From positions 2,547-66,546 of IMG/VR virus record IMGVR_UViG_3300028845_000223: a DNA stretch of 64,000 nucleotides, one strand, 5' to 3'. The notes below the pieces were generated by a model. The model saw only the letters and a list, made by a program, of their open reading frames with translations. It made no database searches and was not told the DNA's origin. Source of the stretch: a virus. The translations under genes and the position numbers were made by a program. This document shows, piece after piece, positions 10,974-49,121 of this stretch; the first letter of the stretch is position 1; the number at the start of each line of letters is the position of its first letter.

Positions 10974-11045
10974 ATTCACCAGGAAAGCAAAAGGACTAGA
11001 ACTTATCTGATTGTTTGAAGGAAGTCCTTTTATAGCCTAGTGAAT
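10974..11045 (-). ncRNA. Bulged-hairpin RNA family, copy 1 (directly after tRNA-Ile CCA)
   Basis: AUUCACUAG/CUGGUGAAU outer stem, GC/GC pair with UAU and UUUC bulges, AAAAGGACU/AGUCCUUUU stem, UCCUUC loop motif. Confidence 0.75.
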
Positions 11046-11120
11046 TGGTAGTCTGCCGCGGATTTGAACCACGAACTGCTCCCTTATCAAGAGAGAACTC
11101 TACCCTTGAGTTAGCAGACT
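11046..11120 (-). tRNA. trnI: tRNA-Ile(GAU)
   Basis: AGTCTGC/GCAGACT acceptor, CTCTC-TTGATAA-GGGAG, encoded CCA. Confidence 0.9.
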
Positions 11121-11214
11121 AATTTTTATTTCTCGTTTTGGTAGAAGTTTGTTGCTTCTACCGCGGCGATCTACACAGTATAATCACCCGACCGTCTGTG
11201 TCAACTGCCAAGGG

Positions 11215-12294
11215 TCATATGTTTGTTTTTTTAACATTTAAACGCCTTAATTCTTCTTTCAACCAAGAAATAGTGGATATTATCCATTCTTTTCTAAAAA
11301 TTTGCAGTTGCCATTCTCTATTGCAAGGAAGAACTAAAGACTGTTCAAAATTTGAAAGTGATTTCTCATAATTTCCAAGATTGTGATAAGAAAAACCTAA
11401 CATCTCTCTATATTGGTAACAGTCCTGTTCTTTTTTAAGAGAAAGATACTTTTCTAGAAAGTCAATACATTCTTTAAAATTATTTTTTTGTATCATTTCT
11501 AGTGAAGCTTTAAAAGCTGCGTGTTCTGGTAGTGTACTTTTATCACATTTAAAAGCCAATTCTTTGAAAATCGGAACATATTCATTATATCTATATTTCT
11601 TTTCTGGGTGACATAACATTTCATCTGCGAGATAATATCTGCATCGATCAATTAACTCTGGATCAGTTTCAAACCTTAACCAGTTTTTTAAAATTGAAAA
11701 ATTTCTTTCGTTGAAATTTCTTGCTCCATTTGAACGATGAATAACTTTAGATTTTGCAACCAGTTTTGTAAAACTATCTCTTCCATCTTTATGATCCAAA
11801 AATTCATGAACAGGAGTTCTCCAATACCATCCAATTTTATTTTTAACAATTCTTTCTCTAAAGAAGTTTTCGCCTTGAATGCAAACAGTTCTGTCTTCGT
11901 TCCAGCCATACATATATTGCATTGATAAATAATTTCTTTTTCCAGCAGCTTTCAAGGTTTCAAAATCTTTTCGAAACCAATAAATATCATCAATTTGATC
12001 ATCTGTATCCAACCACATAACCCAAGGTTGGGTTGCATAAGAAAAAGATTCTTCTCTCGGTGCCGCGAAAGACATTAGTCTTCCATCCAAATCAAGATAT
12101 TTCTTTCCTGTTGCATACACTTTTTCTGTATATTTTTTAGCAACAGCAACAGAATCATCTGTTGACCCTGTATCAACAACAACAATCTCTTTTACAACAG
12201 GAGACATTTGTCCAAGAATAAAATCTAAATTTTGCGCGTCATTTCTGTTGATCATACACAAAGACAAGTCTAGTTTTTCAGTTTCTTCAGACAT
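11215..12294 (-). CDS. Glycosyltransferase family 2 with C-terminal TPR-like helices
   Basis: LSLCMI..N, IVVVDTGSTD, SFAAPR, W..WLDTDD, W...VHE motifs. Confidence 0.85.
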   Translation of the reverse strand: MSEETEKLDLSLCMINRNDAQNLDFILGQMSPVVKEIVVVDTGSTDDSVAVAKKYTEKVYATGKKYLDLDGRLMSFAAPREESFSYATQPWVMWLDTDDQIDDIYWFRKDFETLKAAGKRNYLSMQYMYGWNEDRTVCIQGENFFRERIVKNKIGWYWRTPVHEFLDHKDGRDSFTKLVAKSKVIHRSNGARNFNERNFSILKNWLRFETDPELIDRCRYYLADEMLCHPEKKYRYNEYVPIFKELAFKCDKSTLPEHAAFKASLEMIQKNNFKECIDFLEKYLSLKKEQDCYQYREMLGFSYHNLGNYEKSLSNFEQSLVLPCNREWQLQIFRKEWIISTISWLKEELRRLNVKKTNI

Positions 12295-12310
12295 TTTTGG
12301 TCTCCTGGTT

Positions 12311-15300
12311 TTAAAGGTTATATAACTTCTTAATACAATCAACAAGTTCTTGATCGGGGTGGTCTGATTGTATTAGACCAATTTTAGATTGTTTTGTTTC
12401 GTGTTCTCTAAAATACCACTCGATTTCAAATTCTTCATCTTGATATATGTCAAACTGTAAAAGTTTGTTATTGGCAAAATAACTTAATCGAATTGATGGA
12501 TCAACACTATTTGAAAGAACTTCTTCAAATGGTTCTGCGCTTGGGTTGAACTGTCTTACAATACTCTCAACTTGTTCAATTTTTATTAGTATTTTTTTTG
12601 TTATTTCCATGACACATTTTTTCTTTTTTTATATATTAAAAATCGCGGGATTCTTGCAGTTCTTCAAACTCCAATCAATCCAAAACTCCAACCAAATCAA
12701 TCTAGCTAAAACATCATCAAATTTTGTGTCCATAAATCCTGGTACAGCGTTTGGATGCCTCGCGATCCAATTTGTTTTAGTTTCTTGAATCTTGGATAAG
12801 TGTTCTGGTTTTAAGATAAAACAACCTGGGTGTGCGCTCATAAGACCACATTTTTCATCAAAAAAGAAATCATTGAGTTCTGCTTTTTTAACAAAATCAT
12901 GCCATCCACCATAACTTGGGTGTCTGCCGTTTTTATTACTACTTAATGGATCGCCTGTAAAACTTGGAGCTACAGGCAAACATTTTTCGTGAACCCGAGG
13001 AATATACATTCCAGAGTATTTCTCTTTTTCAAGAACTGCTTCACCGATGTAGATACTGTATCCCATGTTTTTTATCTTTCTATAGCTGTTGAGTTCTTTT
13101 TTTGCCCACAATAAAAACACACCAATTCCGCATATTGATTGTTTACCACTTTTGATAATTCATAATCATGTCTTCCAAACTTACAGAGCTGTTTACTCAC
13201 TACAGGAATAGAACATGGATTAAACCTGTAAAAATTAATTGTTAAAACAATTTCTTCTATTTTTGATTTAAGTTTATCAATCATTCTATTCCAAGATATG
13301 TTTCATATGAATGAATTATTCTACAGTTGCTTCCAAAACCTTTGCAAGTTTCATGTCCAAGCGAACTGGAACATTTCCTGCTTCTGTGCCCACCAATAGC
13401 GGTAATGTTTTCAAACGGATCTAAACTTTCGCAATAAGAATTTATAATTTCAACTGTATGATTAGTTGAAAGATTCAAGTCTTTTTTACAAACCTGGTCC
13501 TGAAAAAGTGATATGTCTTTTACTTTATCCATTTTATTTTCTCTTTCTTACCACGCGAAACGAATATTCTTTTTTATAAGTTTTGGACTGATTTGTTCTT
13601 TTAATTCATCCGTCAAAATTTCATCTGACATAAGAGTCACTCCAGTTCTAAACAATTTTTTTGAAAGTGTGAAATCGTCCAATAAACTATTAACAAATGC
13701 ACTGTCGGCAAAATACGGCGCAGGACGACGGCATCTATAGCAATAACTTGTCGAAACAGGAATACAGAAACAAGTTAACTGTGCTTTCCTCATTTTGTAA
13801 TCATCGAGGTCTTCTGATCTCTTTTTTTGTATTTCGGCTAACCGACACAAAAGTCCAACGAAATTCTTTTCTTGCATTTCATCAAGATTTGGTATTAAAT
13901 GCCTGCAATCCTTTTCTCTTGCCCCAATCATATCCCAGCGTAACCAAAATCCATAATAACTTATTAGTGAGTTTCTTGAAATCCAATCCCACGCATAAAT
14001 ATTTTTATATGTTTTTACTTTATTTGTGGTCTCGCAAAATTCACCTTCAACAAGATAAACACTTGGAATAAAACCTTGTTTTACGGTAGAAAGCGCGGCG
14101 CCAGTAAAGTGTTTGTAAAACACCTTGTCTGAATTTTCTGTAATAAATCCATAAAACTGTTTCATTGTCTTATCCTATTGTTGTTTTTTGATTGATTTTA
14201 TTATTTCATACTCTTCTCTGGTTTCAAACCTAAGACGAGTACCTACTTCAGAAACCAATCCAAGCTCAACATATTTGTTAAAACCTTTATTACCAATATA
14301 TGATATAATCTTCTCCACAGACCAAGGTTTATCATTTACTCCTTTTTCAGAAGCCCAGTGAGTCATTCCAGAAGTTGTATGAACACAGATTTCTGAAATG
14401 TAGTTTCCAGAAACTCCTCTACCAAAATGAGCAGAACACCAACAATTTGGATTAGTCTTTAAACAAGAAAGATTCTTTTCGGCTTTATTTGAAATTATAC
14501 GTCTAAAATCAATTGGGCTCCAATATAAAACAACCTTGTTCACAGTGTGATTAAAACAATCTACCCCATTGAAAACATCTCCAGGTTTCAAATTCATCAT
14601 CCAAACAAAAATCAAAATCAATATAGTCTCCACCACCAATTCCAATGTCAGATTGAACCTCTCCCTCGAAACTATCATTTGTTTTTAAAAATTTAACCAC
14701 ACACACAAGTCAGATGTTTTTCCGTTAACATGGACAAGTCTTTCAGACTGGCACCTCATACACTTTTTATTCATTTAGATTCTCCTTTAGACGGTTGCCC
14801 CAACCATTCTTCAATCTTGGTTATAAGCTCGTCAAACCCACTGTAAAAAGCTTGTGTTGGATTCTGACTTGAAGAGAATGTGATTGACTCTGTTGCGGTT
14901 TTAGACGCGGCAACAAGCATGTAATCTGCCCCAACTTTGTTAAGTTTAAAATCATAAGAAATTCCATTCTCTAGAGAGAGTTCTCCAGTATATTTCAAAC
15001 GAACATTCTCATCTCCAACAAAATAAGAATCGTAATAAGGATCGTTAATCAGGTTATACAATTCTTGTAAAAATCCTTGGTCTGGATATTCCTCTTCTTT
15101 GTGAGCTTCAAACTCTTCTCGAATTCTTTTCCAAAATTTTTGCTGCTCTTTGGATAAAATCTTTAACTCGCTAATAAATGTTTCTATATGATTTCCATCG
15201 ACAGTATAAGATATTTCAGACGATTCGTTTCCTTGAACTAATAATGAATCTATGTTTTGAATGACTTCGCACTGAATATCGGAAATTTTCTTCACAGAAA

Positions 15301-15610
15301 ACTTCGCGCAACATTCCAACATGCCATAAAACTTAAATTCATTCTTTTGTTGTTCCATAGTTTATTCTTCTTTGTATTCGGGGCAGTCCTTGAGGAAACC
15401 TTGAGAAAAGGTTTTGCTTGCATCTTTCACTTCAATATAAATTCTTCTCCTATATGGTCCAACAGCATTACCAATTGTAATAGAAATAACTGAACCCGTA
15501 AAAAACATTCTTTGAGTTATACTTTTTCTTGACTGTATTTTTTCTTCGCCGTGAAAGAAAATACATAGAACGTCTTGTGTTTTATCATATGTTGTTTTAC
15601 AAAGCTGCAT
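12311..15610 (-). other. Hypothetical ORFs 12311-12610, 12629-13066, 13072-13284, 13281-13532, 13548-14165, 14175-14678, 14771-15358, 15362-15610
   Basis: Abutting co-oriented ORFs; several are Cys-rich; 14175-14678 is paralogous to 16623-17117. Confidence 0.7.
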
Positions 15611-15665
15611 TTTTATTTTGTTATCCTTTTTCTTTATTGACTATTTGCAATATTTTACATCAAAA

Positions 15666-16334
15666 TTAATATTCAATTTTTTCTTGATTTGAAGGTTGTG
15701 GTAATAAAGAAACACGAGTTCTTAAATTTAAAATATAACGAGGATATTCCACGGGCGGCAAAACTTCGTGAATTACTTGATTTCCATTTCCGAATCCTGG
15801 TGCCCTCAAAAACATTACTGTTCCAGACTGAGTTTCAAACTCATCTATCTGTTCAATAAAACTATAGTCTACTGGTTCTGTTAAAGACTTGTATATTTTT
15901 ATTTTGGCTTTACCACTTATCGTAAATGTCAGCGAAAGTTTCTTATCACTCCACCTATCTCTATGAGGAGAAATATAATCTTTCGGCGATCTATATTTCT
16001 GATATCCTATTTCATTTGGATACCAACCAGAAAGTTCAAAAAACTTTTCCAGACCATTTAGCTTCTTTAGTTGTTTGCAAAGAGCGTTTGCAATTGGAGT
16101 ATTAACATCTCCTAACATTGAATAATATCTTTCATGAGATTGTGTAACTTTATACGTTTTATTTTGATTTATTGGATTAATAATATGATTACCATATTCA
16201 AGTGGTAAAAATTTTACTTCTTTTAAAAGTTTTTCTATAAGGTCTGAATCTGTTTCATTTGAAAAACAATATCCATTTTCATATGTTTTTTGCAAACAGT
16301 CAACTATATCAAATCTTTCTGTAAAGACCTTCAT
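15666..16334 (-). CDS. 2OG-Fe(II) dioxygenase, AlkB-like
   Basis: YQKY...ISPHRD (HxD), distal H (VIHEV) and R-x5-R (RYILNLR). Confidence 0.8.
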   Translation of the reverse strand: MKVFTERFDIVDCLQKTYENGYCFSNETDSDLIEKLLKEVKFLPLEYGNHIINPINQNKTYKVTQSHERYYSMLGDVNTPIANALCKQLKKLNGLEKFFELSGWYPNEIGYQKYRSPKDYISPHRDRWSDKKLSLTFTISGKAKIKIYKSLTEPVDYSFIEQIDEFETQSGTVMFLRAPGFGNGNQVIHEVLPPVEYPRYILNLRTRVSLLPQPSNQEKIEY

Positions 16335-16622
16335 TCTAAGGTCGGTCGCTTTCTTTTTCTTCTGATTCAAGTTGTTCACAGCCATCGAGAAATTTTTGAG
16401 TAAATATATTCGAAGCACCTAAAAACTCAAGACCAACCAAAGTGCTAAACCCAGCAATTTTGGCATAATCAGCCATAAAAGAAACTCCTCCTGGGGTTTC
16501 CAACTCTTCTGTTTTTGAGACCTCATATCCGTTCACATGAGTCAAGTACAAATAAACCGCATCAGCAAGTTTATCGTATGTTGCCCTGTGAACCAGTTTT
16601 TTCTTTGTTGCCATTTTAGTTT

Positions 16623-17117
16623 CTACTTTCTTTTATGAGTTTTTGATTTACTGTAAAAACTTTCAATAAAGGCATTTTCTTCTTCTGTTGCCGAACGAAG
16701 TCTGTATCCGTTTTTATCAATAATTCCGAACTCAATCATTTTATCAACAACCGAACCTGATATTCCACCATCAAAATAATTCCTTATTTGTTCTATTGGC
16801 CACGCTGGTTCAATACAGCCTGTCTCCGAAATGGAATGTAACCATCCATCTGTTGTAAAAATATCAACGTCCAAAACGAACACACCTCCTGGGCATCGCC
16901 CAAACGATGCACGATTATCTTTAATGATTTTCATTCTTGGTGAGACTGTTTGCCATATAATTTTAATAGATTTTACGATATGATTCCAAGAATCATATGA
17001 GTTAATACCATCTCCAGGTTTTAGATTCATTGCCCAGACATAATCTTTTCTCTTTTGTTTAGAAAAGAGCCTATGGAAAACTCTATTTGTTGTTCCTCTA
17101 GTAAGTCTAGTTTTCAT
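16623..17117 (-). CDS. Hypothetical protein, paralog of 14175-14678
   Basis: Shared W-x-MNLKPGD-x-(F/I)N...NH and PW-x-(V/I)E-x-I motifs. Confidence 0.7.
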   Translation of the reverse strand: MKTRLTRGTTNRVFHRLFSKQKRKDYVWAMNLKPGDGINSYDSWNHIVKSIKIIWQTVSPRMKIIKDNRASFGRCPGGVFVLDVDIFTTDGWLHSISETGCIEPAWPIEQIRNYFDGGISGSVVDKMIEFGIIDKNGYRLRSATEEENAFIESFYSKSKTHKRK

Positions 17118-17720
17118 TCACTTTCTTTCCAGAACTGTTGAGTGAATAAATCCACCTAGTTTTGACAGATCAGAAACAACATGAAAACGATTCGAAAACA
17201 TTTTAATTGTTTCTCTGTCGATATTGCACCCAAATTCTTCCTTTGCTTTCTTTTCGACAAACTTCAAAAGAAGTTTCATAAAAAAACTTTCTGGTTTAAC
17301 ATGCTCAAGAAGTAGAATCTTTCCTTTTTCTGAAAGGACTCGATCCACCTCGTTCATAACTGTTTCTGGATTTCCAAATGTACAAAACCCAAGTTGGCAG
17401 ACAACAAAATCCATTGAGTTTGAAGGAATGTCAACCATTGATTCAACATCTGATTGAATTGGCTTAAATTGAATTCCGTGATACAAAGCTTTTCGTTTTG
17501 CCGCTTCTAATGCCTCAGAAGAAATATCAACTCCAGTAACTTCGCAGTCTTGTTCTTGATACAGTGACAAACCTTTGCCTGTCGAAACAGCGAGCTCAAG
17601 AACTTTTCCTTTAATTGGGCCAGCTGTTTCTTTCAGCTTTTGCCGCATAGGAGAAAACAAGTGTTTCTCGGCAAAGTCTGTTTTCTCATCATACGTTCCG
17701 TCTCTGTACACCTGTTTCAT
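17118..17720 (-). CDS. Class I SAM-dependent methyltransferase
   Basis: KVLELAVSTG, VTGVDIS, SMDFVV, LLLEH motifs. Confidence 0.85.
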   Translation of the reverse strand: MKQVYRDGTYDEKTDFAEKHLFSPMRQKLKETAGPIKGKVLELAVSTGKGLSLYQEQDCEVTGVDISSEALEAAKRKALYHGIQFKPIQSDVESMVDIPSNSMDFVVCQLGFCTFGNPETVMNEVDRVLSEKGKILLLEHVKPESFFMKLLLKFVEKKAKEEFGCNIDRETIKMFSNRFHVVSDLSKLGGFIHSTVLERK

Positions 17721-17799
17721 TACTTGTTTCCTTTGTTGATTGGTTTTGCTTCAAATGTTTTTAAGTTAACCAATATTTCTTCATTCGAATCAAAAAATT

Positions 17800-18255
17800 T
17801 TAACTTTTGCCATTTTGAAAAAATGACTTCTTTGTTTGGATTACTCCTTCAAATAAAAGTCTTTGATAGTCTTCAAAAGATTTGATTATGACTAAATTCG
17901 AATTTTTCGTTTTCAGCGAAACAACGCTAGGTTTACCGAGAATTGTACTACCAGTAGTAGAGTCAAAATGATAATTATTTTTTATTATATCAAATTGATT
18001 TTGAGAATCAAACCTTGTCACATTATAAAAAAATGGTCTAACTATTTGAAAAACTGGTTCTGCGCATCTTTCACAATAAGACTTAAACATCAGTAGATTA
18101 CACTGGCTATAAAACACAACGGCTGTATAATTTTGTAGATGATCGCCCCATTTTGTGCTAAACCTTTTATGTCCCAACAATCTACACAGCAAATGGCCTT
18201 TTGATTTTGGGGTTGAATCAGCCAAAACGAGACCAGTTTCTTGATTGCGGTACAT
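17800..18255 (-). CDS. Cys/His-containing protein (family with 37651-38151 and 59291-59797)
   Basis: LCRLLGHK...CERC, matching LACRLFGCK...CERC and FCKWFGCR...CAIC. Confidence 0.6.
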   Translation of the reverse strand: MYRNQETGLVLADSTPKSKGHLLCRLLGHKRFSTKWGDHLQNYTAVVFYSQCNLLMFKSYCERCAEPVFQIVRPFFYNVTRFDSQNQFDIIKNNYHFDSTTGSTILGKPSVVSLKTKNSNLVIIKSFEDYQRLLFEGVIQTKKSFFQNGKS

Positions 18256-18316
18256 GGTTGCCTCTGAGCGTAGGTATGCACTGATAGAGTAGCTGTAAAT
18301 CCCTAGAAGAAAACCA

Positions 18317-18765
18317 TTAGAAAAATTCGTTTTTTAGTGCTGTGAGACTATCAGACAGCAAGTTATTTTCGGTAACTTCTTTTAGTTCCCAATTTGCTGG
18401 TGCAATATCTGCGCGATAATTATAACTTTCTTCATCGCGATAGGGAAGAAAAAATACAGAAACAAGTTTTTTTCGTTTTAAACGATATTCATTGATACAT
18501 TTTTTTATTACTTTTCCGAGAGAAGTTTTTTGAAACTTGCTTGTTAAAGAATTAAACATATCAACCGTTTGAACTTTATCAAGTTCATTTAACATTTCTT
18601 TTATTTCGTTTTCGAAAACTAATTTTTGTTCTGGAGAGTCTACTGCGGGAGGCTTTAAACCCTCTTCTCGGAACTTTTCAAGAAAGTCTTTCCCCGCAAG
18701 AACTAATGCTTTTCAGATGTGAAAAGATGAACACCACTTTCAGGGTGAGATGTTAAAATGAACAT
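18317..18765 (-). CDS. Hypothetical protein split by a probable A-run assembly error near 18712
   Basis: MFILTSHPESGVHLFTSEK continues into ALVLAGKDF...MLNELD if one A is added. Confidence 0.55.
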
Positions 18766-18767
18766 AG

Positions 18768-19786
18768 TTAATGCCTAACAAACTTAAACCTTGTTTCTTT
18801 TAGGAGTTCTTCCTTTGGAGAAAATTCATGAATTTCAATGGAGTCAAGGCTAACTCCCCAATGTTTCCATTCTGGGCTAACTTCAACCTCTTCTGCCTTT
18901 TTGGTTGCAAGCTCTCTAGTTTCGTGTACTGATTCTAATTTAATATTTCCTTTAGTAGAGCTAAAGGAGTCATATTCTGTAAAGAATACTATTACTGCAT
19001 ATACATTTTCAGCTTCATAAATTTCTTTTGAAACTTCCACATCACCATATCCATCCTTAACAAAACTCTGTTTTCTCAAATGTTGAATATTATGAGTTAA
19101 AATTCTTGGTTTTCTTTCATAAGAACTACCCTTGCAACGTTCGCCGCCAGTTGAAGTAGTTTCACAAACCAAAGTCATGTAATATGAAAGTTCTTTTGAG
19201 TCACTTGTTTCTTTGTGCCGCTGCATTGAATTCCTTTTCCCATCTTTTCTTGTTTTCTTCTTCTAGTTTAATTGATTCTTCTGAACGAATCAATTTGCCA
19301 TTATCAAAATAATGATACCTAAAATCAGATATACAATGCGAGGCTGCGGTGGTAATATAGCCAATTTCTTCTTTAGAATAAGTTTTAGAAAGAAGGTCTC
19401 TATCAATTGCATGATTAAAACACTTTATCCCCTCCCAGGAAGCATGTTTGACAGGAAACCCATATGAAGCGAGTAGGTCTCTCAGTTTTTGTTTTTCCTC
19501 TTTTGGAAGACCAAAAACATCATATGGGATTAATTTAATATCAAGCTTTTCTTTTGGGAGAGAATCCATTTTTTTACTCCTTATTCTTTTTGCTGATTTT
19601 AGAGACGCCTGTTATGACTGCCCCGAACGCGGCATCCACAATCGAAGAAACAATGTTTCTTTCAATTCTCTTTACCGCTGTCTTCACAACCTTCTCCGCA
19701 AGCGAAGCAGGAATTGATTTTTTAGCTTTTGGTTTTGCCATTTTATTTCTTTTCTCTTTTTGGTTTATTGTTTTAGAGGATAGCAC
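18768..19786 (-). other. Hypothetical ORFs 18768-19226, 19201-19569, 19574-19747
   Basis: Abutting co-oriented ORFs. Confidence 0.65.
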
Positions 19787-19863
19787 AGGATTCGAACCTG
19801 TGGAACTCGTTAGAGTTCAGAAGTTTTCTAGACTTCCGCCTTAAACCGCTCGGCCAGCTATCC
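19777..19863 (-). tRNA. trnS: tRNA-Ser(AGA), class II
   Basis: GGATAGC/GCTATCC acceptor, GAAGT-CTAGAAA-ACTTC anticodon arm, long variable arm GAACTC-TAAC-GAGTTC. Confidence 0.8.
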
Positions 19864-19907
19864 ATTATTTTACTATTATAATTTAACTAGTTTTATTTTG
19901 CAGTAGC

Positions 19908-20572: not shown

Positions 20573-20594
20573 GTTTTATCTTCTTTCTTGTTAG

Positions 20595-21033: not shown

Positions 21034-21091
21034 TTGGAACTCACTTTCTTTGTTATGTTTGACAGTTATGTCCTCATACTTATTTTCTGTA

Positions 21092-25587: not shown

Positions 25588-25625
25588 TCTATTCTTTCTT
25601 TGACAAGATGATATTTAACAGTGTT

Positions 25626-26117: not shown

Positions 26118-26370
26118 TATTTTTGAGAGCTTGTTCGACAACTTCTATTGGAATAGAAAGTTCATTAACGAAACAATAATCATCAGAGGTTTCTTTTAAT
26201 TCATTACGTTTTTTGTCTGCCGCAGTTCTATCGGCATACTGTTCAATCAAAACAGTCTCATACCTTGCTGGACTGTAATCATCTCCATACTTCGGAACTT
26301 TCTTATATTGATATACTTGATGTATTTTTATCATTTTAGTTTCCTTTTATAAACTACTGTAATTAACAAC

Positions 26371-26999
26371 ATGATAAGTTTAAAAGATTTTTTGTTTGAC
26401 AAAGAAGACGAAATCCCAGAAAAATACTTGAGTCTTGAAAAAAAATAAAACTTGGAATCGAAGATTTTTTATCGAAAAACAATCCAAAACAATTGGATCT
26501 TTTAATTCCTCAACTTAAAAACATTATCAAAGATAAGTTTGAGGAATTTGATAAAATTTATACTGTATATCGTGGAATGGCTTTAAGCCGCAAAGAATTT
26601 AAAGAAATTTTCTGGTCTGTATTAACTCCAAAACAAAAAACATTGTTTTATAAAATGGAAGATGGATTACAAGATCCTGTTGATTTTGAAATCATAAAAG
26701 ATTTTAAACTTAAACCAAAAAAGGCAAGATATATTCAATCTTGGACTTCTCAAAAAGATGTTGCCCTGAGTTTTACAAGTGGAGGAGAAGTTACCGTGTT
26801 GTGTGTTGCCAAAACAGAAACTCCTAATTTGTTTTTTGGAGAACCTGGGGAACTTGTTAAGTTTACCAAAGATGGATTCTCAGAGGAGAAAGAAACAATT
26901 TCAATTGGAACAGTTAAGTGTTCTGTTTATTTTGGTCCAAGCGTTGCAAACCTTGGTATTCAAAAAGATCTTAAAAGCAAGATATTTTCTTCCAAATAA
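26371..26999 (+). CDS. ADP-ribosyltransferase-like protein (R-S-E pattern), counter-oriented; frameshift in the A8 run at 26438-26445
   Basis: TVYRGM...QSWTSQKDVALSF...EEKET; MISLKDFLFD N-terminus joins by adding one A. Confidence 0.55.
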
Positions 27000-27190
27000 G
27001 AATCAATATTTACAGTGACACCATTTGCAGTAACAAGGAAAAGGCAGGTGAATAACAATTTCAGCAAGTCCAGATTGATAAATTAGTTTATTGCCGCCTT
27101 GAAAAAAAGGTTTATCTTTTTCTCTTTGTCTTTTTCTGAACTCATATCTTTTTTCTGCGTATGGACTCATTGAATCTCTTGTCTTTTTAG

Positions 27191-27264
27191 TGCGAATGAT
27201 AGGAGTTGAACCTACACTAAACAGTTTCTAAGACTGTTGCCTCTGCCAGTTGGGCTACATTCGC
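27191..27264 (-). tRNA. trnL: tRNA-Leu(UAG), short variable loop
   Basis: GCGAATG/CATTCGC acceptor, ACAGT-CTTAGAA-ACTGT. Confidence 0.85.
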
Positions 27265-27269
27265 AATTA

Positions 27270-27590
27270 TTAATAAAACCATTCTAAACCATCTGCTAAA
27301 ACAACAGATTCATAACCATCATATTCTTCAATTCTAAAAGGACCGTCAATAGTTTGAACTTTTAGTTGAAAAGCTCCACCCATATAAGGCGGACGAGATG
27401 TTGGAAACTTTTCTTTCCAATCTTTTAAAAACTGTTCTTCAAGAATATGGTCTATTTCTTTTCCATTTTCGATAGCATCAATAAAAGGTTGATATTCAAA
27501 CATAAACTGTTGTTCTTTTTTTGTTCCACTATACCAAGTGGTCCAACCAGCACCATATCCAGGGCTGTATAAAATCTTTTTTGTTTTCAT
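27270..27590 (-). CDS. Conserved phage hypothetical protein
   Basis: ILYSPGYGAGWTTW...FRIEEYDGYES. Confidence 0.65.
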   Translation of the reverse strand: MKTKKILYSPGYGAGWTTWYSGTKKEQQFMFEYQPFIDAIENGKEIDHILEEQFLKDWKEKFPTSRPPYMGGAFQLKVQTIDGPFRIEEYDGYESVVLADGLEWFY

Positions 27591-27615
27591 TGTTTTTTCT
27601 TTTGTTGAATTTTAG

Positions 27616-27687
27616 TTCGGGTAGCAGGATTCGCACCCACATAGCTAGAGTCAAAGTCTAGAGTCCTAACTGTTGGACGATACCCGA
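27616..27687 (-). tRNA. trnQ: tRNA-Gln(UUG)
   Basis: TCGGGTA/TACCCGA acceptor, CTAGA-CTTTGAC-TCTAG, variant T-loop TGCGAAT. Confidence 0.85.
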
Positions 27688-27813
27688 ATAATGCCAGTTT
27701 GTTTTTACACAAGATCGCTGGCGTCTTATGGAGATGTTACCATCTCAGTTGGTTTGTATGCCGACTTTCAATGTATTTTTCTTTTTCCTCCTTGGGATTT
27801 TAAAACATGTGAC

Positions 27814-28163
27814 TTACATTCTTCCATAATCATCTTGAAATCGTTTAATATCAGATTCGTCACATGTTCCATATTGAATTTCAATTATTGTAAGGTCTTC
27901 GGTTGCAAGAATTTTATGTTTTTGTAATCTAGGAATAGATATTTGTTTTCCTGCATTAACAGATATTTCGCTTAGCAAATCAATTTCATCTCCTTGTTTA
28001 AGGACACCGCAACCATTTACAACCACCCAATGTTCATCGCGGCAATTATGAGATTGTAGCGAAATACTATGATTAGCTTTTATAAAAAGCTTTTTATTTT
28101 AAAATTCAAACCTGTTTCGATTGTTTGAAACCATCCCCAAGGTCTCGTTTCTTTATCATCCAT
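27814..28163 (-). CDS. Mannose-6-phosphate isomerase type II-like cupin (frameshift in an A-run near 28090)
   Basis: RPWGWF...ISLQSH..R.EHWVVVNG...H......L.IIEIQYG..DESDI.R..DDYGR. Confidence 0.8.
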
Positions 28164-28172
28164 TTTATTTTG

Positions 28173-28245
28173 TGCGTCCTCCAAGGATCGAACTCGGGAC
28201 CAACAGATTAAAAGTCTGCTGCTCTACCAGCTGAGCTAAAGACGC
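28173..28245 (-). tRNA. trnK: tRNA-Lys(UUU)
   Basis: GCGTCTT/AGGACGC acceptor, GCAGA-CTTTTAA-TCTGT. Confidence 0.9.
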
Positions 28246-28252
28246 ATATGTG

Positions 28253-28645
28253 TCACTCTTTCTTTTTAATATACCCAGATAAGAAACCATTTTTGTTATC
28301 TTCTAGTATTTCAAGAACAGAAAAAATGATTTGAGGTTTCTTGTCTGTTCCGTGATCGTATAAAATGTTTCCAGAATCAACATCAACACATGCATTGCTG
28401 TTACGACCTTCATACACCACATAATAAGTTGATTTCTTTTTCATTACTTGAAAAAGTGTTGATTGAGTTGGTGATCCAACAAGAAGTTTTCTGCCGCGAA
28501 AACAAAGTATAGAACTTTCTTTTGTTTCAAGTTCTTTAAGAACTCGTTTAACAGCATCAAAGACTTTTTGTCTTGATTTATGTTTCTTTCGAGCTGCGAG
28601 AAACTCTCCTGGATTCTTTTTCTTTTCTCTTTTTGAATCTGGCAT
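28253..28645 (-). CDS. Hypothetical basic protein
   Basis: 130-aa ORF between tRNA genes. Confidence 0.55.
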   Translation of the reverse strand: MPDSKREKKKNPGEFLAARKKHKSRQKVFDAVKRVLKELETKESSILCFRGRKLLVGSPTQSTLFQVMKKKSTYYVVYEGRNSNACVDVDSGNILYDHGTDKKPQIIFSVLEILEDNKNGFLSGYIKKKE

Positions 28646-28670
28646 TTTATTCTCTACTTGTTGAGTATTT

Positions 28671-28746
28671 TGGAGCCCTTTATTGGATTTGAACCAATAA
28701 CATCCAGTTTACAAAACTGGTGCTCTACCAATTGAGCTAAAAGGGC
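28671..28746 (-). tRNA. trnT: tRNA-Thr(UGU)
   Basis: GCCCTTT/AAAGGGC acceptor, CCAGT-TTTGTAA-ACTGG, encoded CCA. Confidence 0.9.
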
Positions 28747-28750
28747 GATA

Positions 28751-28822
28751 TAGCGGGAGGTGGATTTGAACCATCGTCTCAAGGGTATGAACCTTGCAAG
28801 AAAACCACTTCTCCATCCCGCG
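28751..28822 (-). tRNA. trnM: tRNA-Met(CAU), initiator-like
   Basis: CGCGGGA 5' end with C1:U72 mismatch as in fMet tRNAs; CAAGG-TTCATAC-CCTTG. Confidence 0.75.
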
Positions 28823-28920
28823 ATAGTTTTATTATTTATGGCCACATTCAGTTACGCTCTGATACCTGAAGTTTTTCAGACTTCCGTGCTGGAACTATCC
28901 ACACCCTATGGCCGTTTATT

Positions 28921-29655
28921 TTATTCTTCTATATATTCATTAAGAAGATGTTCTGTTAACATAAATGTAAATTTTTGATGCGTTGATATATCTAACTCAT
29001 TAATAAAATTCTCATAAACTTTAAGACTGTTGTCACAACTCTCTATACTTTTTTCTGTTTCTTCAAGTTTCTCTAAAAGAGACTCTGCTTTGTTTTTTAG
29101 TTTTCCGTGTACACTAACATTTGAATATTCAAAATATTTTTTAATAACAGAAACAACATAGTCTTTTGCCCTTAAAGAAAGAACTTCTTCAGAATCAAAT
29201 GTTCCAAGAAACGTTAGTTTTTCTGAATCGTATTTTGCATATCTTTCGCAAAACAAAGAGTAAAGTTTCATTTTGGTTTATCCTTTTCAAGAAACACTGT
29301 TAGCAACACAGATACCATAACTCACACCAAACTTCTTGGCAAGAGCTTTAAGTCGTTGCCGCGTTTTTCTTTCCACTTTTATTTCTGGAATGGTGTCGTG
29401 GTCGCCATCGCCAATGGTAAAGATTTTCGAGGCAGAAACCAAATAAACCGAACCCTCCCCTGTAAAAGCGTTTCCAGAATGGCTATACCTCAGTCCTTTT
29501 TCTTTAAGAAATCCTTCAAATAGATATTCTTCAAGTTTTATCAAAAACTTATGTTTGTCTCCGTCTTCCGTAAACTTTCTAGGATAAGTTTTTAAAATCT
29601 GTTCTTTGGTTACAATAAATCCAAAAAATAATTTTGTTGTGTATGATATGCTCAT
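28921..29655 (-). other. Hypothetical ORFs 28921-29271 and 29287-29655
   Basis: Co-oriented ORFs; the first belongs to the FLGTF-x-SE family. Confidence 0.65.
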
Positions 29656-31217
29656 GATTGGTATATTGATTTTTCCGACGTAAAATGAGAAGTTGATTCT
29701 TTTTTCTCTTCTTTTTTTCCATCGTGGAAAATAGACCCAACAACTATCTCTGTATCGTTCTTATATGTAAAAACATGACGTTTTGTTGTTGTTGTTGTTT
29801 TACCCCCGAGGGCCTCGTTTTCAAAGGGAAACCAGCGTTGCTTAGTTTCATCTTTTTTAAAAGAAAGTCTCTTATCAACCTCAGATTTTCCTTTATAAGA
29901 AAAGTCTTTTTGAGCTATTTGGATCTGTTTGTTCCAAATTTCTCGAATTTTCTTTTCTTGTTCTTCCAAGGACATTCCTTTGATATTGATTGTTTCTTCT
30001 GGCGTGAACCAATGTTCAGGTCCTTGAGCAAGAGCACCCCCCGCATTTGTAACTTGTTTTGAAATTCTCGCTCCAAGTTTTCCATTATAGTCTTTGTAAC
30101 TTATTCTTCCCGCAGCTAGTTCAAAAACTTCTTTATTAGCATAAACCCTTATTTTATGTCCTTTTTGGTGGTAGTGTGCAACTCTTAAATAAGCTTGCGC
30201 AAGTGTTCCATAATTGGGTTCTCCAGGTCTATGATCATGTAAAAATGCCAAATATTGATGAAATCCTAATTCTGTTGATCTTGTACATGTTTGATTTACT
30301 ACTAATAAAGTTCTGTTTTTAAATTCTTGAAAATCTGAAACCAAATCTTTATATTGGTCCATCCAATCGAATCCATTATAAGCATCAACTGCAAGAATCT
30401 TAATATTCTGTTGTGATAGCCTCGCTTGAACTTTTGATTTTCTGAAGGCATTATATAGACCTACGTCTTTTTCTCCACCAGTTAATCTTAATATTCCTAT
30501 TGGTTTATCTTGTAAAGTTAACCACCAGTTAATAACTTCTTTTCCATGCTCTGTAAGGTCAGAACCATCAAAAAATGAATGTGGCTCAAAAACCAAATCG
30601 TTTTCCAAAAACCAACTAGCACCTTTGTATAAAGGATTTGGTTTTAATTCAATTATTTTTGCAACTTTACCAAAGTCTGAATTTTCGGCTTCTTCGTTTG
30701 TTGCTGAATAACATACAAGTTTTATTTTTCGTTCTTTACAAATTTCAAAAATTTTTGAGAAAAGATTTTTAATTCCTGTTCCATAATCTGATTCGTCAAA
30801 ATGTATAATCGCATTATTTGGGTTTTCTGTTTGTTTTAACTTTTGCAAAAGATTTCTTGAGTCTTTTGAAGACGCTAATACAATGACCTCTAATTTATAC
30901 TGTTTCAATTCTTCAATTTGTTCTTTTGTATCTAGTCGATTTAAAGCTGTAATAAAATAATGTCTATTTTGTACATCTTTTTGTGCATATGTTAATGCAA
31001 CAATTTCAGCTATTTGTCTTTTGCCGCTTTTAACTGGTGCTTTAACTAATACGTTAGAATTATAGTCTAATGCCTTGGTAATTTCGACCGCACAATCAAA
31101 CTGTTCTTTTCTATCCTTTTCAAACTCTAAAACATTCCAAGGATGTTGTCTTGGATTATTTTTTTCTCCTAATTCTGGACGATTATCCCTATACATCGTT
31201 GATTTCGTGTCAGTCAT
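29652..31217 (-). CDS. SF2 helicase-like ATPase
   Basis: VKAPVKSGKR (Walker A variant), HFDESDYG (DExD), YSAT (motif III), LAQAYLR (motif VI-like). Confidence 0.7.
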   Translation of the reverse strand: MTDTKSTMYRDNRPELGEKNNPRQHPWNVLEFEKDRKEQFDCAVEITKALDYNSNVLVKAPVKSGKRQIAEIVALTYAQKDVQNRHYFITALNRLDTKEQIEELKQYKLEVIVLASSKDSRNLLQKLKQTENPNNAIIHFDESDYGTGIKNLFSKIFEICKERKIKLVCYSATNEEAENSDFGKVAKIIELKPNPLYKGASWFLENDLVFEPHSFFDGSDLTEHGKEVINWWLTLQDKPIGILRLTGGEKDVGLYNAFRKSKVQARLSQQNIKILAVDAYNGFDWMDQYKDLVSDFQEFKNRTLLVVNQTCTRSTELGFHQYLAFLHDHRPGEPNYGTLAQAYLRVAHYHQKGHKIRVYANKEVFELAAGRISYKDYNGKLGARISKQVTNAGGALAQGPEHWFTPEETINIKGMSLEEQEKKIREIWNKQIQIAQKDFSYKGKSEVDKRLSFKKDETKQRWFPFENEALGGKTTTTTKRHVFTYKNDTEIVVGSIFHDGKKEEKKESTSHFTSEKSIYQS

Positions 31218-31242
31218 TTTATTACCATAAACTTTTAAAGAA

Positions 31243-31313
31243 ATATCAAGAAAGCAAAAAGACTAGTTTCATTCTCCTTGATTTTAGAAGGAAGTCTTTT
31301 TATGGCTTGATAT
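31243..31313 (-). ncRNA. Bulged-hairpin RNA family, copy 2 (directly after tRNA-Gly CCA)
   Basis: AUAUCAA/UUGAUAU, GC/GC, AAAAAGACU/AGUCUUUUU, UCCUUCUA. Confidence 0.75.
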
Positions 31314-31388
31314 TGGAGCGGCCAGCGAGATTCGAACTCGCAACACTCTGTTTGGAAAACAGAAACTCTACCGTTGAGTTATGGCCGC
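31314..31388 (-). tRNA. trnG: tRNA-Gly(UCC)
   Basis: GCGGCCA/TGGCCGC acceptor, TCTGT-TTTCCAA-ACAGA, U73, encoded CCA. Confidence 0.9.
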
Positions 31389-31395
31389 AGAAAAA

Positions 31396-31465
31396 AGTAG
31401 GAGAGCAAAGAAACTAGTTTTTATAATCCTTTATACTTTAGAAGGAAGTTTCTCTATAGCCTACT
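31396..31465 (-). ncRNA. Bulged-hairpin RNA family, copy 3
   Basis: AGUAG/CUACU, GC/GC, AGAGAAACU/AGUUUCUUU, UCCUUCUA. Confidence 0.75.
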
Positions 31466-31466
31466 A

Positions 31467-31683
31467 TGGAAACGTCAATGAACAACAAAACATAAGTTAC
31501 ATGCTTTGCGGCGCTGTTTCATGAGCTTGAACCAATGTCTAGCAACAAAAGAGGGTTTATTTCTTTTATTCTAGAGAAAACAGCAAGGGGCATACCTCGA
31601 TGGAACTCGTACGCCAAGAACATCATTCAAACAGTGTCTCTGTCTTCCATGAACTATAACTTACTTGAAGTTATTGACGTTCC
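31467..31683 (-). ncRNA. ~215-nt structured RNA candidate
   Basis: Closing stem GGAACGUCAAU/AUUGACGUUUC then CA; internal AUGGAA/UUCCAU helix; possible GGCGUAC/GUAUGCC pseudoknot. Confidence 0.5.
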
Positions 31684-31713
31684 TAAACCTCAACCCATCT
31701 GAGGTTGTACTTT

Positions 31714-31939
31714 GATACAAGAGAGCAAAGAAACTAGATTTCTGAAAAAGGAATAGAAGGAAGTTTCTTTATCTGTTCTCCAAAACTTACTTAAAATCAT
31801 TTCTGATTTTAATGTTTGGTTCCTGTTTCTCGGACAAACTGGTTTTTAAACGAAAGTTTAAAAACGAACTCTCATCTCCGCAGGCTTTTGATTCTACTTC
31901 CATAGAATTGGTTTCCGTGGAACCCACGGTACCTTTTAG
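31714..31939 (-). ncRNA. Long-form RNA copy A (~165-nt domain plus bulged hairpin), after tRNA-Asn
   Basis: Closely similar to 33241-33479, with compensatory changes. Confidence 0.7.
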
Positions 31940-32012
31940 CGGTTCCCCCGAGACTTGAACTCGGAACCTTTTGCTTAACGGGCAAACACTCTACCAGTTG
32001 AGTTAGAGAACC
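31940..32012 (-). tRNA. trnN: tRNA-Asn(GUU), C at position 33
   Basis: GGTTCTC/GGGAACC acceptor, TTTGC-CCGTTAA-GCAAA. Confidence 0.85.
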
Positions 32013-32023
32013 ATTTTATTTGT

Positions 32024-32095
32024 TGGTGGGAACCGTTGGATTTGCACCAACATCTCAAGCTTGAGTAGCCTGTGTTTTGCTTAAACTAAATTCCC
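32024..32095 (-). tRNA. Atypical tRNA-like gene (loop UACUCAA, nominal Glu CUC)
   Basis: Cloverleaf with CCA, 5-nt D-loop (GTTT-AAGCA-AAAC), T-loop TGCAAAT, no U33. Confidence 0.6.
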
Positions 32096-32123
32096 TTGTT
32101 TTGTTTCTGTAAAACAATATCTT

Positions 32124-32363
32124 TTATTCTTTTGGCCTTTTCCCTGGATGCTCCATAAACAAAAAGATAAAAAGAGTTGAAAATGGAGGAATCCAGTACC
32201 AAATTGATATTACTATGTTTATGCTTGCCGCGATAAATAAAGTCCAATATCTAAACCTTTTATCTTTCCATCTTTGAAGAGGACTGCTTACATCTATTGT
32301 TGTAATTTTTGGATGTTGCCGCGGAATTTCTATTTTATACGGTTTCCGATATGGATTATCCAT
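32124..32363 (-). CDS. Small membrane protein
   Basis: MDNPYRKPY... with a hydrophobic C-terminal segment. Confidence 0.55.
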   Translation of the reverse strand: MDNPYRKPYKIEIPRQHPKITTIDVSSPLQRWKDKRFRYWTLFIAASINIVISIWYWIPPFSTLFIFLFMEHPGKRPKE

Positions 32364-32369
32364 TTTATT

Positions 32370-32445
32370 TGGTGAACCCGACAGGACTTGAACCTGCAAC
32401 ATTTTGGCTGCAAACCAAACACTCTCCCAATTGAGTTACGAGCCC
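32370..32445 (-). tRNA. trnA: tRNA-Ala(UGC)
   Basis: G3:U70 pair, TTTGG-TTTGCAG-CCAAA, encoded CCA. Confidence 0.9.
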
Positions 32446-32450
32446 TTATT

Positions 32451-32975
32451 TTATTGGTAATATTCCTTTGGTAAACTTACATTTACATTTTTCACTTCAA
32501 TAATTTCTTTTGCCAAGAAACTTGTATGGCGATAATAGTATACTAAATTACCCATTTCTAAGTCAGACCTTTTTACCAAAGTTTTTTCATATTCAATTAA
32601 TTTTTTAATGGTTGAAAAATTGTTTATATTTTCTTTTAATTCCTTTTGCAAAGTTTTAATAAAACCTAAACCAACATTAGGATTATTTAAAATATTCCAT
32701 TTAGCTGTTTTAAGGTCAACTTTACCAGAATAACGATTGCGTTCTCTAAGTGTATAAAAGAAATATTCTCCATCATCTCTCTTTATACAACAATCTCCAC
32801 GTCTATATTCATCTTCTCCTCCATAATACGGAAATACTTCTGTTTTAAGAGAATCATCATTGACATTTTCAATCAAAAAATCAAAACGATTTAAATGCCT
32901 TATCAATAATTGTTCAACTATGTCTGTTTCATAGTCAAAGCAATAAATCTCTCCTCCATAGTTTAACTGGTACAT
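32451..32975 (-). CDS. Hypothetical protein
   Basis: 174-aa ORF inside the tRNA cluster. Confidence 0.6.
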   Translation of the reverse strand: MYQLNYGGEIYCFDYETDIVEQLLIRHLNRFDFLIENVNDDSLKTEVFPYYGGEDEYRRGDCCIKRDDGEYFFYTLRERNRYSGKVDLKTAKWNILNNPNVGLGFIKTLQKELKENINNFSTIKKLIEYEKTLVKRSDLEMGNLVYYYRHTSFLAKEIIEVKNVNVSLPKEYYQ

Positions 32976-33000
32976 CTTTATCTTTTCTTGAGGAATTTAG

Positions 33001-33072
33001 GAGTCAGGAATGGAATCGAACCATTGACCTCGCACTTCCACAGCACGGCTCTACCACTGAGCTACACGACTC
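33001..33072 (-). tRNA. trnH: tRNA-His(GUG)-like, imperfect anticodon arm
   Basis: G-1:C73 signature, canonical D and T arms, CTGTGGA loop with a weak stem. Confidence 0.55.
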
Positions 33073-33077
33073 ATATA

Positions 33078-33153
33078 AACACCAAGAAAGCAAGAAAACT
33101 AGTTTTTTCACCCTTTGAATTTTTAGAAGGAAGTTTTCTTATGGCTTGGTGCT
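33078..33153 (-). ncRNA. Bulged-hairpin RNA family, copy 5 (directly after tRNA-Glu CCA)
   Basis: CACCAA/UUGGUG, GC/GC, AAGAAAACU/AGUUUUCUU, UCCUUCUA. Confidence 0.75.
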
Positions 33154-33230
33154 TGGTGATCCCAATGAGATTTGAACTCATATTTCTCATTCTGAAAAAA
33201 TGGTAGCCTAAACCGTTAGCTGATGGGACC
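33154..33230 (-). tRNA. trnE: tRNA-Glu(UUC)
   Basis: GGTCCCA/TGGGATC acceptor, CCATT-TTTTCAG-AATGA, encoded CCA. Confidence 0.85.
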
Positions 33231-33240
33231 ATAATAAAAC

Positions 33241-33479
33241 ATACAAACGAGGAAAGCAAGAAAACTAGTTTCATTCACATATTGATTTTAGAAAGAAGTT
33301 TCCTTATATTGTTCTCCAAAACTTACTCAAAACCATTTCTGATTTTAATGTTTGGTTCCTGCTTCTCAGACAAGCTGATTATTTCCCAAAAAGGAAATAA
33401 TGAACTCTCATCTCCACAGGCTTTTGATTCGAAAGTTTTCATTCGAATCGGTTTCCGCGGAACCCGCAGTACCTTTTAG
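33241..33479 (-). ncRNA. Long-form RNA copy B, after tRNA-Asp
   Basis: Homolog of 31714-31939; same CUAAAAGGUAC start directly after the discriminator base. Confidence 0.7.
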
Positions 33480-33551
33480 CGGAGTATGCGAGAATTGAAC
33501 TCGCGACGCTCGGATGACAACCGAGTGTTATGACCATTTAACTAATACTCC
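33480..33551 (-). tRNA. trnD: tRNA-Asp(GUC)
   Basis: GGAGTAT/ATACTCC acceptor, CTCGG-TTGTCAT-CCGAG, G73. Confidence 0.9.
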
Positions 33552-33554
33552 TAG

Positions 33555-33684
33555 CAGTCGCCGATTGTTTTGCACAATCATTTTTGCTTGATTAAACCTT
33601 GTCTTATTTATTCGAGCTCGTGTTCCCGATAAAACAAACAAAGTTTGGGTTCATGCACTATTTTGCTGTTTAAACTAGGCGACT
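33555..33684 (-). ncRNA. 130-nt tRNA-like RNA with a long hairpin replacing the anticodon arm
   Basis: AGTCGCC/GGCGACT acceptor, GATTG-TGCAAAA-CAATC T-arm, TAGTTTAA D-arm start. Confidence 0.55.
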
Positions 33685-33692
33685 AGTATTGG

Positions 33693-33758
33693 ATACAGGA
33701 GAGCAAGAAAACTAGATTTCTGAAAATGAATAGAAGGAAGTTTTCTTATTGCCTGTAT
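33693..33758 (-). ncRNA. Bulged-hairpin RNA family, copy 7 (directly after the CCA of the atypical tRNA)
   Basis: AUACAG/CUGUAU, GC/GC, AAGAAAACU/AGUUUUCUU, UCCUUCUA. Confidence 0.75.
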
Positions 33759-49107: not shown

Positions 49108-49121
49108 CTGAGGTCCTGTTT

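Follow-up and report, generated by a model that had tools for sequence, protein, structure and literature searches.

Hairpin RNAs in the tRNA clusters

The window considered here is a 64,000-nucleotide stretch of viral DNA (bases 2547–66546 of the 203,914-bp IMG/VR virus record IMGVR_UViG_3300028845_000223), in which seven copies of a small hairpin RNA, c1 to c7, stand in the tRNA clusters. The source record has a G+C content of 32% and an estimated completeness of ~56%, and near-identical DNA was found in bioreactor, activated-sludge, and wastewater sequencing runs. The genes of the window lie on the minus strand nearly throughout, and 17 tRNAs were called by ARAGORN. The gene of a 689-aa protein, modeled as a Ro60-like helical ring followed by a TerD fold, is located on the minus strand at 43176–45245, 9.4 kb upstream of c7, and its product is the putative partner of the hairpins.

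The pattern ACTTCYTTC-N10-40-CTAGT matches exactly seven times in the window, always on the minus strand, compared with 0.02 matches in shuffled sequence, and these places are the ones listed in a preliminary description of this DNA. A covariance model built from the seven window copies (R1) returned only the same copies from the whole contig, plus one match at E = 0.7. A weak R1 match at 49048–49149 was discarded, being without the CUUCCUUCU core. The outer-stem limits of the copies were taken from folds, and those of c4 and c6 are approximate.

Four copies start directly after an encoded CCA, which the preliminary description had reported and the coordinates bear out. Hairpin c1 (10974–11045), identified by R1 (77.6 bits), fold, and sequence, follows the CCA of tRNA-Ile(GAU) (11046–11120, minus strand; ARAGORN and the Rfam tRNA model). 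Hairpin c2 (31243–31313, 85.7 bits) follows that of tRNA-Gly(UCC) at 31314–31388, and c5 (33078–33153, 90.3 bits, fold z = −3.3) that of tRNA-Glu(UUC) at 33154–33230, with tRNA-Pro beginning 5–6 nt downstream of c5. The fourth, c7 (33693–33758, 80 bits), is borne by an atypical tRNA or tRNA mimic at 33759–33830 on the minus strand, which has a UGCAAAU T-loop and an encoded CCA; the mimic was called by ARAGORN at a relaxed threshold only and was also supported by alignment with the related locus L018. In this relative, whose protein shares 67% identity, the unit of mimic and hairpin is conserved, with compensatory changes in the stems of the mimic. A further copy, c3 (31396–31465, 84.7 bits), begins one base past the CCA of a ~215-nt stretch with a long closing stem, as had also been noted, and ends 7 nt before tRNA-Gly. 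The remaining two, c4 (~31721–31786, 62.6 bits) and c6 (~33249–33318, 75.2 bits), are long forms placed by the consensus fold of the pair, and they lie at the ends of the structured trailers of tRNA-Asn and tRNA-Asp, respectively.

Two sigma-70-like promoters, both minus-strand consensus matches only, precede these units. The first (TTGACA-16-TATACT, 11/12) is at 11177–11204, before the tRNA-Ile and c1 unit, and the second (TTGACA-16-TAAGAT, 10/12) is at 33905–33932, upstream of the array of the mimic, c7, and tRNAs.

Several other structured elements accompany the hairpins on the minus strand. The ~215-nt stretch between c4 and c3 (31467–31683) has a long closing stem of GGAACGUCAAU with AUUGACGUUUCC and a fold z of −2.3, and it is a candidate for a further non-coding RNA. 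Structured domains of ~155 nt (31787–31938 and 33322–33478) directly follow the CCA-less tRNA-Asn(GUU) and tRNA-Asp(GUC); they show several stems with compensatory changes between them, and each runs into a hairpin (c4 and c6). In addition, contigs of strain variants from other wastewater runs are without the 521-aa open reading frame (ORF) at 29659–31216, and other variant contigs are without the block 32107–32992, which holds a 92-aa ORF, tRNA-Ala, and a 174-aa ORF. These variants are joined at hairpin or tRNA borders, and a further joint connects c3 with the end of tRNA-Asn. For the 521-aa gene neighboring the hairpins, no relatives were found in the related-locus search.

Structure and covariation of the hairpin

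Each copy is a small structured RNA of ~65–90 nt. An outer stem of variable sequence leads to a conserved asymmetric internal loop (5′ GGC-Y-AU, 3′ GCUYUCC), followed by a covarying inner stem of 9–10 bp, which has invariant C-G and U-A closing pairs and carries a loop opening with the invariant UCCUUCUA. Further invariant or near-invariant features are two G-C pairs where the outer stem meets the internal loop, together with 5′ C-Y-A and 3′ CUYU of that loop. In the long forms c4 and c6, which deviate from the short form, GGAGA pairs with the 3′ GCUYUC strand, and the GC position of the inner stem shifts between window copies. In many copies, the loop can also pair internally with an RGGUGAA-like stretch. 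The core described earlier as near-invariant holds for CUUCCUUCUA in the window, whereas its CUAGU part relaxes to UAG across the wider family.

The compensated stem pairs quoted in the preliminary description proved correct, and RNAalifold on the seven copies gave 18 pairs, 10 of them with compensatory changes. In an alignment of 32 sequences, 90.4% of the pair cells were paired, compared with 38–50% when the partners were slid, and the cells changed on both sides numbered 151 versus ~40 in the slid controls. An independent IMG/VR set of 43 distinct sequences gave 91.5% versus 40–48% for pairing and 244 versus 42–65 for cells changed on both sides.

The internal loop includes a U-G pair that is near-invariant (40/43 sequences) and would become a C-A mismatch on the other strand. 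The orientation of the RNA equals that of the gene of the 689-aa protein in every locus. Both properties therefore point to repeats that act at the RNA level rather than as DNA.

Relation to known RNA families and terminators

No Rfam family matched the hairpins at the gathering thresholds or at E ≤ 10 over 30900–34300 and 10800–11250; L141 and L037, two relatives searched at E ≤ 1, gave nothing at their hairpins either, and the family is absent from Rfam 15. Together with the strong covariation in two sequence sets, this agrees with the proposal that the hairpins constitute a new structured RNA family. The Y RNA and YrlA models likewise gave no match at E ≤ 10 in the same two regions and none at E ≤ 1 in L141 and L037. 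The Ro-binding G-N-CGAA motif was present in only 1/29 and 5/50 aligned copies, at unconserved places. Of the Y RNA traits suggested in the preliminary description, adjacency to the partner gene is shared outside this clade. Because GNCGAA is absent as a conserved motif and no Y RNA or YrlA model matches, the hairpin RNA is, as judged from its sequence, an analogue of Y RNA and not a member of the family.

A terminator scan called no terminator at the window copies, none is followed by a U-tract, and the next tRNA or ORF lies within 5–18 nt, which disagrees with a motif behaving only as a terminator. A blastn search (distant settings) of 31200–33800 against GenBank phages gave tRNA matches only. 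A strict pattern derived from the window found two matches in IMG/VR, which lay in apparent coding sequence without a complementary stem and were set aside as chance. No paper describing this protein–RNA pair was found in the searchable literature on TerD with TROVE or Ro60 or on tRNA-linked hairpins in jumbo phages.

Genomic co-occurrence with the TerD-domain protein

Homologues of the 689-aa protein range from 22 to 67% identity, and the family comprises 760 clusters at 50% identity (E ≤ 1e-30). The contigs bearing homologues were searched with R1; an improved covariance model is termed R2 below. In the closest clade (L018/L019, L022, and L029; 43–67% identity), the hairpins lie 7.5–10 kb downstream of the gene among tRNAs, and the order of the serpin-like, rIIA-like, rIIB-like, and radical-SAM genes is kept. 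In the more distant lineages, one to four copies stand right beside the gene on the same strand, at a distance of ~500 nt or less. Their arrangement varies: two hairpins occur just downstream of the gene in L023 and three downstream in L024, while L025 has two upstream that flank an odd tRNA, L026 three upstream, and L028 two upstream. In L030, one hairpin ends 19 nt before the start codon and three follow the stop codon. Among GenBank phages, a hairpin is found within ~500 nt of the gene in the uncultured 485-kb phage LR745208, in MT835874, in Xanthomonas phage XacN1 (ORF396), in Rhodococcus phage Weasels2 (gp266), and in Lactobacillus phage LpeD (orf166). R2 applied to five whole phage records (1.59 Mb) gave nine matches, of which eight fall 1–426 nt from the gene and one, in Salicola phage SCTP-2, is separated from it by 18 kb.

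The association also appears when the search starts from the RNA. In IMG/VR, a pattern drawn from the conserved motifs matched 67 loci, and R2 confirmed 22 of them. The protein is encoded by 20 of the 22, with the nearest hairpin no more than ~180 nt from the gene as read from coordinates, compared with 0 of the 45 unconfirmed loci, which served as chance-match controls (Fisher 4e-15). One of the two exceptions encodes the protein elsewhere on its contig. In bacterial genomes, the gene stands beside 30/31 confirmed copies versus 0/49 unconfirmed ones (3.5e-21). The confirmed bacterial loci belong to actinomycetes (Streptomyces, Nocardia, Nonomuraea, Kitasatospora, and others), and in most of them the first copy begins ~10–20 nt past the stop codon. 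The tie between the RNA and the helical and TerD protein, which the preliminary description had suspected, is therefore seen from either starting side, with none of the 94 chance matches beside the gene.

In several of these loci, the RNAs appear to have promoters of their own. Sigma-70 promoters end 2–7 nt before the first hairpin in L023 (12/12), XacN1 (11/12), and L026 (10/12). A second XacN1 promoter (12/12) lies before a cloverleaf-like RNA with a terminal CCA, which leads into another copy. The promoters in L023, XacN1, and L026 therefore argue that the RNAs are separate genes and not mRNA leaders.

CCA-ending tRNA mimics beside hairpins occur in the window at 33759–33830 and 32024–32095 (minus strand), in L018 at 19530–19615, in L023 at 12311–12383, and in L037 at 7078–7156. 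A UGCAAA-type T-loop is common to both window mimics and the L018 mimic. The CCA-ending elements beside the XacN1 and L023 hairpins both fold cloverleaf-like, and neither was recognized by ARAGORN or Rfam. In Weasels2 (L033), a T-arm-like piece and then a D-arm-like piece lie between the hairpins downstream of gp266 (10060–10180) and are possibly a permuted tRNA-like RNA. The gene of an RtcB ligase is located ~3 kb beyond these pieces. RtcB is not a regular neighbor of the family: among the fetched loci it was found only in Weasels2 and L069, and it is absent from the 204-kb contig.

Fold of the 689-aa protein

An AlphaFold model of the protein (pLDDT 79.6) shows a helical domain followed by a β-sandwich. 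The C-terminal sandwich is a TerD fold, matched by PDB entries 3ibz, 2kxt, and 2qz7 (Foldseek E 1e-9 to 1e-6; VIA Z 15–17). Against the Pfam TerD model PF02342, the window protein reaches 19.6 bits, short of the cut-off of 25.3, and 7/19 relatives do match (best E 8e-8). When PDB sequences were searched with a profile of 19 family members, only TerD was found. A vWA domain with a MIDAS site was not found at the C-terminus, where the TerD β-sandwich lies. The protein has no nuclease-like fold, and PADLOC gave no match for it.

An exhaustive structural comparison was carried out with 48,161 PDB representative chains. For the full-length model, Thermus phage Ro60 (Z 9.7, 299 residues) and Deinococcus (D.) radiodurans Rsr (Z 9.4, 307 residues) come directly after the TerD entries, so that Ro60 representatives occupy ranks 3–4, and other helical proteins align over only ~95 residues. 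When the helical domain (326 residues) was folded alone (pLDDT 80.1), ranks 1–3 were taken by Xenopus Ro60 (Z 9.2, 272 residues), Thermus phage Ro60 (Z 9.1, 251 residues), and Rsr (Z 8.2, 257 residues), and the runners-up had Z ≤ 7.1 with ~95 residues aligned or an rmsd above 20. The earlier proposal of a Ro-like protein is consistent with these three best matches of the helical domain. A search of the AlphaFold DB clusters brought up TerD-family proteins of identical architecture together with one entry for a ZorC EH domain and one for DUF4132, and no Ro60.

A putative Ro-like particle and its alternatives

The hairpin family is probably the cognate RNA of the protein encoded at 43176–45245, the two forming a particle like that of Ro60 and Y RNA. 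The hairpins would be bound by the protein and, in this phage clade only, would be released by tRNA processing. As to its role, the particle would most plausibly survey or protect small RNAs, tRNA among them, in infected cells. In such a particle, the protein would provide a helical ring resembling the TROVE ring of Ro60, which is built of HEAT-like helical repeats, with a TerD β-sandwich as the cap in the place where Ro60 has its vWA domain, and would assemble with the RNA in the manner of Ro60 with Y RNAs. The conserved bulged helix may be the docking site, and the pyrimidine loop may act as a second contact or as the part that engages another RNA or an enzyme. Most phages and bacteria carry one to four RNA copies directly beside the gene. 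In the present clade, the copies have been shifted ~7–10 kb into tRNA operons, where they are attached to tRNAs and to the mimic at the 3′ CCA; lying in these operons, they would be transcribed with the tRNAs. Two fates of the transcript can be envisaged. The hairpins may be excised by the enzymes of tRNA processing, with RNase P setting their 3′ side at the tRNA that follows, or they may stay joined and yield a two-module molecule, a tRNA plus a protein-binding stem, comparable to YrlA.

Several points weigh against this interpretation. The Ro60 resemblance is modest (Z 8–10, rmsd 5–6 Å; 5.4–6.3 Å for the helical domain), and Z values below ~13, the range in which the Ro60 scores fall, do not settle the matter for helical repeats. 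With the helical domain as query, Foldseek returned nothing at E ≤ 0.001 and no Ro60, and the Pfam TROVE model PF05731 matched 0/19 family members at E ≤ 0.05. Because of the modest Z, the rmsd of 5–6 Å, and these two null searches, the helical domain is regarded as likely, short of proof, to be a Ro-like ring. TROVE is also absent from the 204-kb contig, while control genomes match. As for the genomic link, SCTP-2, L051, and L063 contain copies without the gene within several kb. In the window itself no copy adjoins the gene, and the link here rests on relatives. A purely regulatory RNA would be compatible with the co-occurrence as well. The alignments used for covariation had been fitted to the model, and this inflates the pair counts; the slid-partner controls, which share that bias, argue against fitting as the cause of the pairing excess. 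Finally, two small wastewater metatranscriptomes contained short contigs on 33007–33495 and 31534–31685, and these give thin, weak support for expression since assembled contigs could derive from DNA.

A purely regulatory role would make the hairpin a cis-acting control of the mRNA of the protein, as an autoregulatory operator, a 3′-UTR stabilizer, or an unusual terminator, with the copies in the tRNA operons serving as decoys. Such a role would suit the constant location on the strand of the gene, the short distance from the stop codon in actinomycetes, the copies of L028 and L030 that end 19–29 nt before the start codon, and a loop complementary to the Shine–Dalgarno-like AAGGA. It is nevertheless unlikely: the position varies from upstream to downstream or both, with tandem arrays of two to four, separate 12/12 promoters exist, and in XacN1 a terminator-like hairpin (seen by eye only) separates the array from the gene. 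Moreover, the window copies have no U-tract or called terminator, and in this clade and SCTP-2 the copies lie 7–18 kb from the gene. The same complementarity of the loop underlies the idea that the hairpin acts chiefly by base pairing with ribosome-binding sites, tuning or blocking translation, with the protein only as a chaperone. The invariant CUUCCUUCUA loop presumably resembles the pyrimidine-rich 3′ tail of 16S rRNA, its complement overlaps the AAGGA-type ribosome-binding motif of the phage, and its sequence is conserved across hosts of different phyla. A complementary 6-mer occurs in 22/204 upstream regions, compared with 5.5 ± 2.2 in random windows, an enrichment that any pyrimidine-rich sequence would give and that is compatible with such pairing, nothing more. 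Considering that no specific target was found, that the loop can pair internally in many copies, and that the conserved internal loop is left unexplained, this idea is judged even less probable than the very slim prospects of mere punctuation in the tRNA operons.

Under punctuation, the hairpins would be RNase III or RNase E sites or would protect 3′ ends, with no link to the TerD-domain protein. All seven window copies do lie in tRNA clusters, four abutting a CCA and three ending 5–18 nt before the next tRNA, and the strain-variant joints fall at hairpin and tRNA borders. However, a copy stands directly at the 3′ end of only 4 of the 17 called tRNAs, plus the mimic. Outside the clade, the same RNA stands beside the protein gene, often far from any tRNA and sometimes with its own promoter. 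A generic RNase site would also have no need of a loop and an internal loop that stay invariant in hosts of several phyla, and the co-occurrence statistics argue against punctuation. Least credible is a function of the repeats as DNA, in recombination or as mobile-element sites, or as a type III RNA antitoxin array beside a toxic protein. Tandem arrays beside one gene recall toxI and toxN, the assemblies of L018, L019, and L029 end inside a copy, and deletions in strain variants end at copies. Against this stand the G-U pairs, one of them near-invariant, which work on one strand only, and outer stems without conserved terminal sequence. The repeats also vary in sequence, unlike toxI units, and the protein has neither a nuclease-like fold nor a PADLOC match.

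The Ro60/Y-RNA-like particle thus stays the preferred explanation, and a broader version of it can be put forward tentatively, as one that is slightly more apt to fail than to hold. The protein and RNA may represent a second widespread class of Ro-like particle, with a TROVE-like ring, a TerD cap, and an RNA of its own. In this clade, tRNAs and the mimic may have acquired the RNA at their 3′ ends, so that host tRNA-processing enzymes would make it or tRNA-shaped molecules would serve as a tether for the particle, and the particle may guard the tRNA pool in infection. To our knowledge, Ro60 with Y RNAs is the only particle of this kind, and its role in bacteria and phages is poorly understood. 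The present pair would extend the Ro/Y-type design to a protein of new architecture and to a new family of RNAs, to which the clade adds the fusion to tRNA. A parallel system of this type would be distributed in giant phages, in cultured Xanthomonas, Rhodococcus, and Lactobacillus phages, and in many actinomycete chromosomes, and its comparison with Ro60 could reveal the purpose of the design. A large protein family of unknown function gains a testable partner RNA, and the layout of the window suggests a route in bacteria by which tRNA operons could yield small RNAs, and possibly a direct connection of the particle to tRNAs.

Comparison with known systems

Y RNA genes adjoin bacterial and phage Ro60 genes, often in several copies (PMC4201824, PMC12135203). 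The Ro-binding motif in the Y RNA stem is GNCGAAN0-1G in bacteria and GGUCCGA in animals, and YrlA holds a tRNA-like domain (PMC4201824). The Ro60 of Thermus phage phiLo binds two adjacent Y-like RNAs and can recruit the host PNPase (PMC12135203).

The present system resembles Ro60/Rsr with its Y RNAs, namely YrlA/YrlB and Yrn1 in bacteria and Yrl1/Yrl2 in phage phiLo, in that the gene of a large, putatively ring-forming helical protein is flanked by same-strand genes of stem-bulge-stem RNAs, and a metal-binding cap domain would close the ring. tRNA-like RNAs are involved in both, YrlA having its tRNA-like domain and the hairpin here being fused to tRNAs and the mimic; unlike the nested arrangement of YrlA, the tRNA module stands in tandem with the stem. 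The protein differs from Ro60 in having no TROVE match and no sequence match to a PDB Ro60, and in a cap that is TerD and not vWA. The RNA differs from Y RNA in that the GNCGAA or GGUCCGA motif is replaced by conserved GGCYAU / GCUYUCC and the UCCUUCUA loop.

The nearest curated protein family is NCBIfam NF041916 (MXAN_6230/SCO0854 family RING domain-containing protein), which is uncharacterized. The match takes in the later half of the helical domain together with the TerD region (window protein, E 2e-65), and on the profile of 842 positions the best stretch of the window protein starts at 381. The scores of 221–365 bits are far under the cut-off of 600, and the proteins are taken as a sister family and not as members.

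In murine gammaherpesvirus 68, transcripts composed of a tRNA-like unit and a pre-miRNA are made, and the hairpin is freed by tRNA-processing enzymes. What the window shares with them is a hairpin joined to the 3′ terminus of a tRNA or tRNA-like RNA, which may serve as a handle for transcription and processing. The viral system is eukaryotic and relies on RNase Z and the miRNA pathway, whereas here the CCA is encoded, the hairpin family is linked to a protein, and processing is only presumed. Type III toxin–antitoxin loci offer another likeness, as toxI arrays lie in tandem beside toxN, and here too tandem units of small structured RNA are located directly beside the gene of a presumed partner protein. 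In contrast to ToxI, the units vary in sequence and keep only the structure and two motifs, they occur on either side of the gene or at a distance, and the protein is not ToxN-like.

Other features of the window

Two genes downstream of the TerD-domain gene, a serpin-like protein is encoded at 41481–42431 on the minus strand (Pfam Serpin, E 7e-9), and this gene is kept in the closest relatives. Homologues of rIIA and rIIB are encoded at 39144–41384 and 38242–39138, respectively. The model of the PreQ1 riboswitch aptamer gave a match below its threshold (26.3 bits versus a gathering score of 39; E 0.02) at 34088–34127 on the minus strand; this site lies upstream of the tRNA array and near the radical-SAM gene at 36139–37623. 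The tRNA-Asn and tRNA-Asp of the window are queuosine-type (GUN) tRNAs. A tRNA-Ser with the anticodon AGA (A34), unusual in bacteria and phages, is encoded at 19776–19863 on the minus strand. A tRNA of the amber-suppressor type (anticodon CUA) is located at 57777–57849 on the plus strand, opposite to the main tRNA clusters.

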